Below, piece by piece: positions 1 through 36,144 of a stretch of 64,000 bases of DNA (position 1 is the first letter of the stretch; the number at the start of each line of letters is the position of its first letter). The stretch lies in NCBI GenBank assembly GCA_963704725.1, contig OY969934.1:64001-128000 (forward strand). Reading direction: 5' to 3'. The position numbers and the translations under genes were made by a program. The stretch comes from an uncultured Actinomycetes bacterium (lineage in GTDB: Bacteria > Actinomycetota > UBA4738 > HRBIN12). The notes under the pieces were generated by a model. It saw only the letters and a program-made list of their open reading frames with translations. It made no database searches and was not told the origin of the DNA.

Positions 1-54
1 ATCGCGCCGGGTCTTCTCTTTTGCCCCGTGTTCGCGAGCGCGTCGCGCGCCGCG

Positions 55-32354: not shown

Positions 32355-32504
32355 CCGCCCCCGCGGTCCCGTGGCACCGGGGACCTCCGACCCTTCCCGT
32401 CGACGGTGGCGAGTGACTGGATGCGGCCGACGGCCGTCCCGCCGCGGGGAGGTGATGGGTCGGCCGGGGGCCGGTTGCGACGATCCTGGCACGGGAGGGC
32501 AACC

Positions 32505-32864
32505 ATGGACGTCGGGCTTCTGATCCGCTACGGCAAGATCGTGCCCGGCCGGGAGACCGAGGCGGTCGAGCTCTTCGCCGCCGGCGAGCGGTTCTTCAAG
32601 GAGAAGCTCGCCGAGCGGGTGATCACCTACTTCGAGCCGTTCTTCCTGACGACGAGCGACCTCGAGGAGGACCTGGGCTTCCACATCATCAAGGGCCCGG
32701 CCCCCGAGATCTTCAAGCTCATGGAGGACGAGGACTACCGGGCGCTCATGACCAAGATGACACTGGTCGTCGAGCACCCCCGTGCGGACATCCTCACCGT
32801 GGGCGAGGCGATCTACGCACAGGTCGAGCGGTTCGCGAAGGTCCGCGTGGAGCTGGGGCTCTGA
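32505..32864 (+). CDS. hypothetical protein
   Basis: SD GGGAGG; GC3-biased codons; non-shadow composition. Confidence 0.75.
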   Translation: MDVGLLIRYGKIVPGRETEAVELFAAGERFFKEKLAERVITYFEPFFLTTSDLEEDLGFHIIKGPAPEIFKLMEDEDYRALMTKMTLVVEHPRADILTVGEAIYAQVERFAKVRVELGL

Positions 32865-32891
32865 GCGGAGGAACCGAGGGGGCAATCGAAT

Positions 32892-32926
32892 GCGGCCGGG
32901 GCGGACGCGGCGTCCGCCCCGGCCGC
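32892..32926. terminator. perfect 16-bp hairpin between convergent genes (likely bidirectional terminator)
   Basis: GCGGCCGGGGCGGACG-CGG-CGTCCGCCCCGGCCGC. Confidence 0.65.
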
Positions 32927-32935
32927 CCCAACTGC

Positions 32936-33502
32936 TCAGATGAAGAGCTGGATCGCGCTCTCCTTCATCTCGAGCAGCGCGGTGGCGGCCCCGATGGGCT
33001 CCTCGAGCCCCTCGATGAGGTCGTCCTTCCCGATCCCCATCAGGTCCATCGTCATCTGGCACGGGATGAGGCGGACGCCCATGTCCATGGCCATCTCGAG
33101 GAGCTCGGTGGGGTGCGGCGTCTTGTAGTTCTCGGCCACCTTGCCGAGCATCCACGGCCCCATCCCGGCGAACTGGTACCGCGAGAGCTTGGCCTTGGCG
33201 GTCGAGCCCGGGTTCATCACGCCGAGCGCCTTCGTCATCCAGTCCTTGCCGGTCTTGCGTCGCCGGTCGGGTCGCACGAGCGGGAACAGGCCCCAGAACG
33301 TGAAGAACACGCCGACCTCCATGCCGGAGGCGGCGGCCGTGGTCGACAGGATGAGCGTCGGCCAGATGCGGTCGAGGTGCCCGTCCCACGCGACGATCGT
33401 GATCTTGTTCTTCTTGTTGATGCCGTCGCGCTCGGTGACCGCGCGGTCGATCAGCTCGCGAAGCGCGGTCTCGTCCACGGCGGCAGGCGTCTCATCGCCC
33501 AT
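32936..33502 (-). CDS. DsrE/DsrF/DrsH-like (DsrE2-type) sulfur relay protein
   Basis: ILSTTAAASGMEV.VFFTFWGL, IPCQMTMDLMG. Confidence 0.9.
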   Translation of the reverse strand: MGDETPAAVDETALRELIDRAVTERDGINKKNKITIVAWDGHLDRIWPTLILSTTAAASGMEVGVFFTFWGLFPLVRPDRRRKTGKDWMTKALGVMNPGSTAKAKLSRYQFAGMGPWMLGKVAENYKTPHPTELLEMAMDMGVRLIPCQMTMDLMGIGKDDLIEGLEEPIGAATALLEMKESAIQLFI

Positions 33503-33505
33503 CGC

Positions 33506-33736
33506 TCAGGCCTTCCGGATCACGTACCGGAAGACGCCGGCATCCTCGCTCGCCTCGACGAGCTCGTTGCCCGAGAGCGTCGCCCAGCTCGGCACGTCGG
33601 ATCTCGAGCCGGGATCGGTCGCCAGCAGCTCGAGCAGGTCGCCGGACCGGGCCTCCTTGAGCGAGCGGTGCAGCGTGACGAGAGGCCCCGGGCAGGATTG
33701 ACCGCGGGCGTCGACGGTGGTGGAGATGACGTTCAT
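33506..33736 (-). CDS. tusA: sulfur carrier TusA family
   Basis: DARGQSCPGP, ATDPGS..DVPSW; SD GAGGAGG. Confidence 0.92.
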   Translation of the reverse strand: MNVISTTVDARGQSCPGPLVTLHRSLKEARSGDLLELLATDPGSRSDVPSWATLSGNELVEASEDAGVFRYVIRKA

Positions 33737-33794
33737 GGGCGGGAGACCTCCTCGGGATCCGGTCGGGTGGGGGACGGTGCCGGTGGGGCGCGGC

Positions 33795-33881
33795 CTAGCG
33801 GCCGGCGCTCGGCACCCCGGGACAGCAGCACCGGTCGGGGATCATGGCCCCCACGAGCCCGCGGCAGCGTGTCCGGATCAT
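33795..33881 (-). CDS. putative cysteine-rich leader peptide (28 aa)
   Basis: MIRTRCRGLVGAMIPDRCCCPGVPSAGR, between the promoter and tusA; below the ORF-track length cutoff. Confidence 0.6.
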   Translation of the reverse strand: MIRTRCRGLVGAMIPDRCCCPGVPSAGR

Positions 33882-33923
33882 TTGCAACTGCAAATCCTAC
33901 CGGGGATGTGCGGTTCGCGGCAA
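33880..33923 (-). promoter_or_regulatory. tusA-dsrE promoter with palindromic operator
   Basis: TTGCCG-18-TAGGAT; ATTTGCA-AC-TGCAAAT at 33880-33895. Confidence 0.6.
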
Positions 33924-34028
33924 GACAGGCAGCCGAGGCGTGGACCGCGACCGGAGCCACGAACGACCGTGCGTGGAACTCGCCCCTCTAACGGGACCGC
34001 GGGCCTGCGGGCCGGTATCGTGTCGGCG

Positions 34029-35261
34029 ATGCGTTGGACCCGGCGCCTCCTCGTGACCGCGGCGGTCCTGGCCGTCGCGTCGGTGGGCCTGGCGCTGCCG
34101 GCCGCGGCCGCCTCCTGCACGTTCACGGCGCCGACCGTCACGATCGAGGTGGCGCAGGGCGAGACCGCCACGATCGCCCGCACGGGTGAGGTCATCACCC
34201 TGAACGGCACGCCGTGTGAGGCGGCGACGGTCACGACCGCGGACAGCATCGTGGTCAACGCGACGGGCGCCCCCACGGAGATCGCGATCGACGAGTCCGG
34301 CGGGCGCTTCGAGCCCGGCCTTACCCCCGAGCCGGACGGCTCGGAGATCGAGTTCACGCTCAATCTCGGGACGGCGACACCGGTGCTCCGCATCGTCGGC
34401 GGCGCGGACGCCGATTCGATCGTGGTCGGCGCCGACGGGATCAACCTCAATGCGGGCGAGACGACGGGCGACGTCGACGTGATGGTTCCCGCCGGTGGGC
34501 CCGTGATCACCGTCTTGGGCGGGGCCGGCGACGACCGGCTCTCCGTCGCGGGCGGCGCGGGAACGGGCGAGCCCAGCCCCGGGGCGACCCTGCAGGGCGA
34601 GGACGGCGCGGACCTCCTGCAGGCCGGCACCGGAGGGAGCGCGTTCGACGGTGGGGCCGGCACGGACACGATCGACTACGCGATCCTGAGCGGCGTCACG
34701 GTGGACCTGGCCGCGGGAACCGCGGGGGCCACCGGCACCGACACGGTCACCGCCGTCGAGAACGTGACCGGATCGCCGGGCAACGACACGATCACCGGCG
34801 ACGATCAGGCCAACGTGCTTGCCGGCGGGGACGGGAACGACACGATCGACGGCGGCGGAGAAGCCGACACCCTGCTCGGCGGGGAGGGGATGGACACGGC
34901 CTCGTTCGCCTCGTCCCGCGCGAGCGTCACGGTCGACCTCAAGGCGGGCACGGCCGAGGGAGACGGCGCCGACACGCTCGACGGGTTCGAGAACGTCGTG
35001 GGGAGCCGCAAGGGCGACGAGATCCGCGGCAACGGCGCCTCGAACTTCCTCGACGGCGTCAACGGGCCCGACGTGCTCAGCGGCGGCAACGGCGTCGACC
35101 AGCTGGCCGGCGGCAACGGGAACGACCGGCTGTTCGGCGGCAAGGGCAACGACACCCTCAAGGGCGAGGACGGCAAGGACCAGCTCGACGGCGGGGAGGG
35201 GAACGACCGCTGCAAGGGGGGCAACGACCCCGACGCGTTCGTCCGCTGCGAGCATCTCTAG
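34029..35261 (+). CDS. secreted calcium-binding protein with hemolysin-type (RTX) GGxGxD repeats
   Basis: Sec signal ending AAA; many GGxG(N/D)DxL repeats; ENV.GS motifs. Confidence 0.88.
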   Translation: MRWTRRLLVTAAVLAVASVGLALPAAAASCTFTAPTVTIEVAQGETATIARTGEVITLNGTPCEAATVTTADSIVVNATGAPTEIAIDESGGRFEPGLTPEPDGSEIEFTLNLGTATPVLRIVGGADADSIVVGADGINLNAGETTGDVDVMVPAGGPVITVLGGAGDDRLSVAGGAGTGEPSPGATLQGEDGADLLQAGTGGSAFDGGAGTDTIDYAILSGVTVDLAAGTAGATGTDTVTAVENVTGSPGNDTITGDDQANVLAGGDGNDTIDGGGEADTLLGGEGMDTASFASSRASVTVDLKAGTAEGDGADTLDGFENVVGSRKGDEIRGNGASNFLDGVNGPDVLSGGNGVDQLAGGNGNDRLFGGKGNDTLKGEDGKDQLDGGEGNDRCKGGNDPDAFVRCEHL

Positions 35262-35267
35262 GGCCGT

Positions 35268-35645
35268 TCACACGAGCCGCCGCCGGTCCGGCGGCCAGTA
35301 CACCAGCCGAACGCTCCCCTTCACGCCCGCCCGGCGCACGGGTCCGAACGCGCGGCTGTCGGTCGAGCCGTCGGCGGCATCGCCCTCCACCCAGAGCTCA
35401 TCGCCCCCCAGGACGCGGCCGTCCGGCGCGCGGTCGCCGGGGACGGCGATCACGCGTTTCACCATCTCGAAACCCGGGCGCGCCGGATGCTCCACCACCA
35501 CCACGCCGCCCCTGCGGATGCGCCCGGGCACCACCGCCAGGGCCCACTCGCCCGGCTCGAGGGCGGGACGCATCGACGAACCGACGATCTCGACCCGGAA
35601 GGGATTCCAGCGCAAGTACGTCCAGCCCGCCCCGGCAACGACCAC
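35268..35645 (-). CDS. sodX: Ni-SOD maturation protease (S26-like)
   Basis: GSSMRPAL.PG, VKRV, WVEGD...STDSR.FGPV; divergent from sodN; start uncertain (ORF extends to 35735). Confidence 0.8.
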   Translation of the reverse strand: MVVAGAGWTYLRWNPFRVEIVGSSMRPALEPGEWALAVVPGRIRRGGVVVVEHPARPGFEMVKRVIAVPGDRAPDGRVLGGDELWVEGDAADGSTDSRAFGPVRRAGVKGSVRLVYWPPDRRRLV

Positions 35646-35727
35646 GGCGGCCAGGAACGCCTTCCGCCAAGCTCGGGGGCGGTGGTAGGTTCGATCGAGA
35701 GGCCGTCCGTCCGAAAGGGGAAGGTTC

Positions 35728-36144
35728 ATGCTCAAAGCTTTGCTCAGGCCCCGCCGTCTCGTCCACGCCCACTGCGACCTGCCGTGCGGCGTCTACGACC
35801 CCGCGCAGGCGCGGATCGAGGCGGAATCGGTGAAGGCGATCCAGACCCGCTACCAGGACGCGGAGAAGATGAAGTCGGCCGGCGAGACCGCCGACGACTA
35901 CCGGGCGCGGTGCCTCGGCATCAAGGAGGAGCGGGCCGACCTCGTGAAGCACCACCTGTGGGTGCTGTGGACCGACTACTTCAAGCCGGAGCACGCCGAG
36001 AAGTACCCACAGCTTCACGAGCTGTTCTGGAAGGCGACGAAGGAGGCCGGGCTCGCCAAGAAGTCCCAAGATCCCGAGCAGGGCCAGAAGCTCCTGGACG
36101 CGATCGACGAGCTCGGCAAGATCTTCTGGGAGACCAAGGCGTAG
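35728..36144 (+). CDS. sodN: nickel superoxide dismutase
   Basis: Ni-hook HCDLPCGVYDPAQARIE after a 14-aa leader; VLWTDYFKP; IFWETK. Confidence 0.97.
   Translation: MLKALLRPRRLVHAHCDLPCGVYDPAQARIEAESVKAIQTRYQDAEKMKSAGETADDYRARCLGIKEERADLVKHHLWVLWTDYFKPEHAEKYPQLHELFWKATKEAGLAKKSQDPEQGQKLLDAIDELGKIFWETKA

Follow-up and report, generated by a model that had tools for sequence, protein, structure and literature searches.

The stretch of DNA analyzed here, referred to as the window, comprises 64,000 nucleotides (nt) of contig OY969934.1 from an uncultured actinobacterium and contains, on its minus strand, a tusA-dsrE2 gene pair preceded by a 28-codon open reading frame (ORF) with three consecutive cysteine codons. 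We consider it probable that this short ORF (sORF) encodes a translated, cis-acting leader peptide, a member of a lineage-specific family that heads operons for sulfur assimilation and trafficking and that would act by the mechanism described further below. That it belongs to the cysteine-attenuator kind appears well supported by the sequence comparisons, better than any particular mechanism. Elements of this kind are already known. New are a distinct leader-peptide family that is conserved as a peptide across paralogous operons, tusA-dsrE2 as its target, a design in which the stop codon lies in a hairpin without a terminator or Shine-Dalgarno occlusion, and the pairing of the leader with a shared operator. 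The leader ORF is a missing gene annotation.

An earlier note on this DNA, made from its letters, had described the promoter TTGCCG-18-TAGGAT, the sORF, its Cys codons and the gap to tusA, and every coordinate proved correct (Table 1); the gap from the sORF stop to the tusA ATG at 33736 is 58 nt (33794-33737). The Cys run by itself is weak evidence for a real gene. The genome (71% G+C) contains 228 runs of three TGY codons, 83 of them in stop-to-stop frames of at most 60 codons, and 16 of these 83, in 15 ORFs, have an in-frame start. Three other short Cys-run ORFs that we inspected all lie inside coding regions, in a different frame. The sORF is more than a chance occurrence because it is conserved.

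For the conservation analysis, 80 loci were retrieved through the DsrE2 protein alone, 66 of which had tusA upstream and enough flanking sequence. The same sORF occupies the same place in 59 of these 66, a count that includes one locus (L034) that failed a stricter pattern, and in the seven loci that lack it TusA is the most divergent (46-57% identity). Codons 19 and 20 encode cysteine in all 59 sORFs, and codon 18 does so in 39 of 68 distinct cores, a set that covers all leader types after removal of the chance match L119 (see below). Among 42 distinct cores (codons 1-21), 8, 8 and 17 of the 21 sites are variable at codon positions 1, 2 and 3, respectively, with mean entropies of 0.27, 0.23 and 0.67. 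The earlier note had named Cys runs with synonymous variation upstream of orthologous tusA-dsrE pairs as the signature to look for; nearly all of the loci have the sORF, all of these have the Cys-Cys pair, and variation falls mainly at third positions.

In the 68 cores, the sORF frame has a ratio of nonsynonymous to synonymous differences (pN/pS) of 0.35 and is free of stops in every case, whereas the other five frames have values of 0.62-1.45 and each contain a stop in one sequence or more. Among these, the antisense frame with the same wobble positions (pN/pS 0.62) does not fit the exchanges between the arginine codons CGG and AGG, which are synonymous in the sense frame only. Compared with TusA over 45 loci (76-residue TusA), the sORF core has the lower pN/pS (0.245 vs 0.354) and also the lower pS (0.31 vs 0.45). 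When 32 of the 69 distinct peptides are aligned, 11 columns are invariant (M1, R5, G8, V10, M13, I14, P15, R17, C19, C20 and P21), the last three of which were preset by the search pattern for loci L089 onwards, though not for L001-L080. The start codon is ATG, directly after a palindrome described below, in all 69 distinct tusA-type leaders. Two TTG codons lie in frame upstream of it in the window (33887 and 33893, the latter being where the ORF list starts the sORF); such codons are not kept in frame in the family, because many loci have a 1-nt indel between palindrome and ATG. These comparisons indicate that the sORF frame is under purifying selection.

The core of the family reads [M/V/L]-[I/V]-x-T-R-x-x-G-x-V-[G/A]-x-M-I-P-x-R-x-C-C. 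Of 294 genomes of the window's class, 157 contain the nucleotide pattern ATGATCCC-N4-CG-N4-TGYTGYCC, in one to three copies each, and none contains its reversed control. Across an even sample of the phylum it matched 17 of 401 genomes, 16 of them of the window's own order; the sole match outside the order (L119) lies in a long ORF without the peptide motif and was rejected as a chance match. Six-frame searches with a hidden Markov model (HMM) of the peptide gave matches in 23 of 24 sampled genomes of the window's family, with one to four copies per genome, in 2/2, 1/2, 2/2 and 0/3 genomes of other families of the order, and outside the order only eight weak partial matches (E-values 0.002-0.01). 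Judged by these sequence searches, the leader family appears almost confined to the window's own order. The tallies include genomes flagged as unpublished (10 in the class pattern scan and 2 in the HMM sample), and no claim is made on these alone.

A profile search of 1.84 billion representative proteins returned 62 matches at E ≤ 0.001, mostly of 19-70 residues; we looked up ten, of which seven carried a name, in each case 'hypothetical protein'. The leader peptides match no family in Pfam and NCBIfam, all of NCBIfam having been scanned with both the window sORF and a second copy from the same genome. The best genome-wide scores for the two NCBIfam models NF042933 (leader_Ms5788A; 11 bits, cut-off 45) and NF042934 (cis_reg_atten; 15.8 bits, cut-off 27) are each at an unrelated place. 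An Rfam scan of positions 32500-34500 yielded 16 weak matches, none of them in 33737-33900 and none at the gathering score. A genome-wide screen for Cys-Cys leader ORFs, based on a home-made gene call covering 75% of the genome, missed both known copies and is therefore uninformative. In three metagenome gene calls (P0008, P0027 and P0030), the leader peptide continues without a stop into rhodanese, either in the frame of that gene or in a shifted one, which might reflect natural fusions, frameshifts or faulty assembly. Many of the longer family members carry a [V/A/M]-R-[P/T/R] motif immediately before the stop codon.

The second copy in the window's genome (G000:C1:1730250-1730342; L082:751-843, plus strand) starts with GTG and has the Cys-Cys pair only. 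The next gene, 124 nt on, encodes a two-domain rhodanese and precedes sufB, and a terminator-like hairpin with a U-rich tail is located between the sORF and the rhodanese gene. A DUF59/FeS_assembly_P gene is found upstream of this copy.

The copies are co-oriented with their target genes and lie 27-209 nt upstream of them; of about 200 pattern matches in the class, 50 loci were read. The first set includes 72 distinct leaders of tusA, a number corrected for three that a sorting rule had misfiled. Rhodanese genes are the targets of 12 leaders in the first set and of 7 of 20 extra copies, NIR_SIR sulfite reductases of one leader in the first set (L116) and 5 of the 20 extra copies, a phosphoadenosine or adenosine phosphosulfate (PAPS/APS) reductase of one of the 20, and a beta-carbonic anhydrase of a single leader (L111). 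Downstream of one more copy (L131) is a gene for a DUF3303 protein, by a weak match. Among 18 leaders sampled as not of the tusA type, 3 of which are misfiled tusA leaders, 13 have a Shine-Dalgarno-like run before a GTG, TTG or ATG. The same peptide is thus initiated in two ways, from an ATG directly behind a promoter and from a GTG or TTG behind a Shine-Dalgarno sequence, which argues that translation itself is what is kept.

The arrangement TTGNNN-16..19-TANNNT-9..14-ATG is present in 64 of the 69 distinct tusA-type leaders. The commonest forms of the -10 hexamer among these 64 are TAGGAT (29) and TAGCAT (21), and the hexamer stands 11 nt before the ATG in 34 of them and 12 nt before it in 19. 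Since a scan of the leader region for Escherichia coli-style promoters returned no site, the promoter assignment rests on this conservation. It would place the transcription start inside the palindrome, with an untranslated leader of about 4-6 nt.

This palindrome, TTGCA-N2-TGCAA, has six exact sites in the 3.45-Mb genome, compared with 0.48 expected from base composition. It lies within 16 nt before the ATG in exact form in 56 and in relaxed form in 67 of the 69 tusA-type leaders, and it follows the -10 hexamer in all leader types of the relatives. Its arms are conserved and its central dinucleotide is variable, which, together with its position at the predicted transcription start, fits a repressor site. 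Two of the six genomic sites abut the two sORF leaders. Two others abut the ATG of a 114-residue rhodanese and that of a Prok-JAB gene followed by ThiF and ThiS genes, an operon resembling the CysO/MoeZ/Mec set. The fifth lies 27 nt before the start codon of a Fur-family gene (G000:C1:1439432-1439947; L085:2433-2876, minus strand), and the sixth between a lon-like and a clpC-like gene, as judged from their N-terminal sequences alone. From these positions, the palindrome is probably a repressor site shared with other sulfur genes and looks like the operator of an unnamed sulfur regulon; the Fur-family regulator is a possible candidate for an autoregulated factor that binds it.

Within the leader, constraint passes from peptide to RNA after Pro21. 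The first two bases of codon 22 are free (it encodes G, K, E, R, Q, P, V, M or W), while its third base is a fixed G that opens the stem GGUGCC. In 47 leaders folded singly, this stem pairs with GGCACC about 40 nt further on and encloses a second and an apical stem, whose loop contains the stop codon. A covariance model derived from 45 seeds scores 70.9 bits on positions 33760-33830 of the window and has 62 matches in 100 of 135 sources. Across 53 distinct aligned sequences, 93.4% of the cells are paired, compared with 34-49% when the partners are slid, and 24 cells are doubly changed, compared with 12.8 in shuffled alignments (none of 500 reaches 24). These pair counts lean towards the model, the seeds having been chosen by a rule that requires both outer arms and the alignment having been fitted to the model. 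Double-sided changes fall in three of the eight inner pairs, and the outer stem shows no variation at all. In 48 of the 69 distinct tusA-type leaders, a GGCACC-like 3' arm comes after the stop; by eye, the hairpin of a short-tailed subgroup (e.g. of the ...ICCPA type) is a different one, which likewise spans the stop.

RNAalifold, applied to 57 of the 59 whole leaders (the longest two, L054 and L056, omitted), returned only nine pairs, none of them compensatory; the variable spacer misaligns. On the 45 hairpin segments it recovered the outer stem only, and the inner stems were then imposed for the covariance model. The whole window leader is no more stable than its shuffles (-67.0 vs -70.0 ± 4.3 kcal/mol, z +0.69). 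Its minimum-energy fold contains GAUCCGG/CCGGAUC, GUGGGGG/CCCCCAC and, inside GGUGCC/GGCACC, the hairpin over the stop codon. The earlier note had proposed these helices, with GGUGCCG/CGGCACC as an alternative pairing, and only the stop-codon hairpin and its outer stem turned out to be features of the family. Across 68 leaders, one with a very short tail having been dropped, GAUCCGG/CCGGAUC reaches z < -2 in only 13, including the window, and thus characterizes a subgroup, and GUGGGGG/CCCCCAC has a median z of +0.41, no better than expected from composition.

Beyond the hairpin, the spacer is C-rich and G-poor across the 69 leaders (51% C, 21% G; median length 36 nt), with a C/G ratio above 2 in 48 of 68. 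Two codons within the core are also fixed against codon bias. Codon 20 (window 33824-33822) is TGT in all 68 distinct cores, compared with 10% of Cys codons genome-wide, and codon 4 (33872-33870) is ACA in 34 of the 68, compared with 1.7% of Thr codons. GGACA at codon 4 can pair with UGUCC at codon 20 (77.9% of cells paired); this helix is conserved, and covariation was not found for it. Two wobble positions that are fixed against bias and able to pair suggest some RNA constraint on top of the coding constraint.

In the mechanism that we propose, transcription would start within the palindrome, which is probably a repressor site, and ribosomes would load at or near the 5' end of the leader. 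When charged tRNA-Cys is scarce, a ribosome would stall at codons 18-20. From known ribosome footprints, a ribosome awaiting Cys-tRNA at codons 19-20 has its leading edge at about base 66-68 of the sORF. These bases form the base of the hairpin, a spacing kept without indels in 45 sequences, so that the edge of the stalled ribosome would just abut the hairpin and leave it standing. With ample cysteine, the ribosome would pass, melt the hairpin and terminate in its loop, and the difference in ribosome position would set the output level of tusA-dsrE2. The output step in the tusA-type leaders would more likely be premature, Rho-type termination or a hand-over of the ribosome across the C-rich spacer to tusA, two options that predict opposite responses to cysteine shortage. 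For many of the paralogs, an intrinsic terminator may provide the output step: 17 of 31 non-tusA leaders have a terminator-like hairpin with a U-rich tail behind the sORF, compared with 4 of 31 shuffles, the classes having been assigned by a rough N-terminal rule that counted one sulfite reductase as a rhodanese. The 5' arm of the terminator clearly switches partner with ribosome position in one (L134) of six such leaders.

Several results weigh against this proposal. In equilibrium folds of 69 leaders, the median unpaired probability of the tusA Shine-Dalgarno sequence is 0.27 in the free leader, 0.29 with a ribosome at the Cys codons and 0.31 with a ribosome at the stop. This unchanged accessibility does not support an occlusion of the Ms5788A type for the tusA leader, and the modeled folds thus suggest that the output step of the tusA-type leaders is probably not Shine-Dalgarno occlusion; in 29 other leaders, accessibility rises by more than 0.2 in six and falls by that much in none. 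The cysteine-attenuator reading of the earlier note is partly supported, in its kind, by the selected frame and the sulfur-operon targets. Terminator-like hairpins are no more frequent in tusA-type leaders (4 of 76) than in shuffles (6 of 76), and no consistent antiterminator was found in the six paralogous leaders, out of seven examined, that have a terminator. With a predicted leader of 4-6 nt that lacks a Shine-Dalgarno sequence, the mRNA would not be strictly leaderless. Contigs from soil metatranscriptomes of relatives cover the sORF, and one spans both sORF and tusA and ends 5 nt before the ATG; the two RNA libraries look like one data set, and the contigs show neither starts, strand nor a single transcript, so that they are at most a weak hint of expression. 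Finally, an attenuator that merely counts codons needs no conserved core, and here the whole core is conserved rather than the Cys codons alone: mean pairwise identity over the 45 loci is 0.91 for the sORF core and 0.76 for TusA, and in 15 of 57 more distant HMM matches the core is kept although the Cys-Cys pair is missing.

This last group of observations is what one would expect of an arrest peptide. Here, the nascent chain IRTR..G.VGAMIP.R.C would stall the ribosome in response to cysteine or a sulfur metabolite, with the Cys codons contributing only in part, and the arrest would control downstream termination or initiation; like TnaC, SecM and SpeFL, the chain would act inside the ribosome tunnel. 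Selection on the peptide at least as strong as on TusA (pN/pS 0.245 vs 0.354), 11 columns that stay invariant across paralogs diverged at synonymous sites, the distant matches that keep the core without Cys-Cys, a conserved stretch of about 20 residues that would sit in the exit tunnel, as general knowledge of arrest peptides has it, and a tail past the core that is free as a peptide and constrained as RNA all speak for it. The peptide is not known to share an arrest motif, however, the distance from core to stop ranges from 1 to 17 codons, and the Cys-Cys pair is kept in all 59 DsrE-anchored copies. We regard an arrest peptide as possible rather than likely. The same modest standing applies to its extension to the whole family, which might be a sequence-specific nascent-peptide sensor of sulfur or cysteine status, in which a single conserved 20-residue arrest module recurs at 2-4 operons in each genome together with an operator shared at the DNA level.

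Strong conservation would also be expected if the sORF encoded a free small protein, a Cys-rich peptide of 22-38 residues that acts in trans and whose upstream position reflects co-expression and not control. It might serve TusA, DsrE2 or rhodanese as a thiol, persulfide or metal ligand, or assist the palindrome-binding regulator as a cofactor; the alternative raised in the earlier note, that the peptide itself is functional, gains weight from the same conservation. Paralogs have their own Shine-Dalgarno sequences, many have a terminator-like hairpin after the ORF, and gene callers predict 62 clusters of such peptides. Yet each of the copies, one to four per genome, precedes the gene of one of several unrelated sulfur enzymes in the same orientation, the C-terminal tail is free in length and sequence, and in the cases read the gap from the terminator to the downstream start is too short for a separate promoter, which makes a free protein improbable in our view. 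Least probable by far is that the element works untranslated, as RNA or DNA, for instance as a riboswitch-like leader or a binding site for a protein, and that its open frame is incidental. The bias-defying TGT (68/68) and ACA (34/68) at codons 20 and 4, which can pair, and a pS below that of tusA (0.31 vs 0.45) would fit such an element. Evidence against it is the concentration of variation at wobble positions, a frame that is free of stops in all 68 cores and has a pN/pS below those of the five others, conserved start codons and, in paralogs, Shine-Dalgarno sequences, and a leader that matches nothing in Rfam and folds no more stably than its shuffles.

The closest known counterpart of the translated leader that we favor is the 'Cys ribulon' of Ms5788A/Rv0815A (Canestrari et al., 10.1101/834739), in which, as far as the text of that preprint goes, polycysteine sORFs control cysA2-type and other cysteine-related operons in Mycobacterium smegmatis. 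The operon types of the present family are those found there under polycysteine sORFs, which supports the attenuator kind. Both systems consist of short, unannotated Cys-run ORFs 5' of sulfur or cysteine operons, both occur in several copies per genome on different operons, and both count rhodanese-type sulfurtransferases among their targets. The run TGC TGC TGT contains the at least two consecutive Cys codons that define the mycobacterial sORFs, and gene order places it upstream of sulfur genes in the same orientation. In contrast to what that text describes, the Cys run is internal here and not C-terminal, and the rest of the peptide is conserved across paralogs. No duplex occluding the Shine-Dalgarno sequence is predicted here, the NCBIfam scores separate the two families, and the actinobacterial orders differ. 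As to the leaderless start of the mycobacterial sORFs, the -10 hexamer lies 11-12 nt before the ATG in 53 of the 64 leaders with the promoter arrangement, which predicts a 4-6 nt leader without a Shine-Dalgarno sequence, and the paralogs use Shine-Dalgarno sequences with GTG or TTG. The pair tusA-dsrE2 is not named in the text of the preprint, its Table 1 lying outside the comparison.

Cys leader peptides without terminators were also predicted for Actinobacteria in 2005 (PMC1262725), with a Rho-dependent mechanism proposed. In the portion of that study considered here, the leaders share with ours a leader ORF with Cys codons, the lack of a terminator and a pyrimidine-rich spacer; theirs have Cys runs near the stop and no conserved hairpin, whereas in the present family the stop sits in a covarying hairpin and the peptide is itself conserved. 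With the trpL and hisL attenuators, the family has in common regulatory codons in a short ORF, a stop in a hairpin loop and, between ORF and structural gene in 17 of 31 paralogous leaders, a GC-rich hairpin that ends in a U-rich tail. It differs in that the tusA leader has no terminator and that no consistent antiterminator pairing was found; moreover, classical leader peptides are not conserved beyond their regulatory codons. The Rho-dependent attenuation of the E. coli tna operon offers another parallel, a C-rich untranslated spacer without an intrinsic terminator. There, the amino-acid sequence of the leader peptide matters, and TnaC stalls at its stop codon while sensing free tryptophan. 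The RNA of the present family is likewise rich in C and poor in G, but the spacer is short. In its probable mode of action the leader resembles the mycobacterial Cys sORFs and the classical leader peptides, yet by these comparisons it is a member of neither family. As the earlier note had supposed for its target and lineage, we found no paper that describes a Cys leader for tusA-dsrE or for this lineage, in a comparison that did not extend to the tables and supplements of the preprint or to Lyubetsky et al. 2014.

To our knowledge, cysteine control read by the ribosome has been shown experimentally only in mycobacteria. The present family of Cys-codon leaders, from an order of mostly uncultured soil actinobacteria, would be a second one, unrelated to the first and far more conserved in sequence, and would add TusA-DsrE2 to the cysteine-linked targets. 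The grouping of TusA-DsrE2 with sulfite reductase, PAPS reductase and rhodanese suggests a role in assimilatory sulfur handling. The conservation of the peptide across paralogs makes it possible to test concretely whether leader peptides have a function beyond the counting of codons, and TTGCA-N2-TGCAA is a candidate operator for a sulfur regulon. If the family were indeed an arrest sensor, it would be the first arrest peptide to sense cysteine or sulfur, the regulon would be read by the ribosome through one shared peptide, and TusA-DsrE2 would be placed in the assimilatory sulfur trafficking of bacteria that do not oxidize sulfur.

The features of the locus are collected in Table 1. The dsrE2-type protein scores 71.5 bits against the NCBIfam model SulfCarrDsrE2, under its cut-off of 210.

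Table 1. Features of the tusA-dsrE2 locus, with positions in the window unless marked G000:C1.
Feature	Position	Strand	Basis or remark
-35-like hexamer TTGCCG	33918..33923	-	read from sequence
-10-like hexamer TAGGAT	33894..33899	-	read from sequence; 18-nt spacer after TTGCCG
Palindrome TTGCAGTTGCAA (TTGCA-N2-TGCAA), candidate operator overlapping the predicted transcription start	33882..33893	.	
Palindrome, further exact sites	G000:C1: 1072611, 1439902, 1730214, 2466115, 2507217		
Leader ORF, 28 codons, MIRTRCRGLVGAMIPDRCCCPGVPSAGR	33795..33881 (including stop)	-	ATG at 33881, TAG 33797-33795
Cys codons TGC TGC TGT (codons 18-20)	33822..33830	-	read from sequence
Hairpin with the sORF stop codon in its apical loop	33776..33816	-	folds and covariance model
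Hairpin outer stem, GGUGCC with GGCACC	33816-33811 with 33781-33776	-	
Hairpin apical stem, CGGCC with GGCCG; loop GCUA	33804-33800 with 33795-33791	-	
C-rich, G-poor spacer from hairpin to tusA ribosome-binding site	33754..33775	-	
tusA Shine-Dalgarno sequence GGAGG	33747..33751	-	sequence; conserved in leader alignment
tusA, 76 residues	33506..33736	-	PF01206, E 1.5e-22
dsrE2-type gene, 188 residues	32936..33502	-	PF13686, E 6.1e-43

Downstream, a long and perfect-looking inverted repeat (32881-32936), for which Rfam gave only spurious matches of the microRNA type, lies between dsrE2 and a convergent ORF of 152 codons (32406-32864) and is probably a bidirectional terminator. On the other side, the divergent neighbor of the leader (33990-35261, plus strand) encodes a protein that looks secreted and carries RTX calcium-binding nonapeptide repeats (PF00353, E 1.7e-26). 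It is followed by a sodN/sodX pair, in which a Sod_Ni nickel superoxide dismutase gene (35728-36144, plus strand) is divergent from an S26-type peptidase gene (35268-35735, minus strand), the usual arrangement of these two genes.

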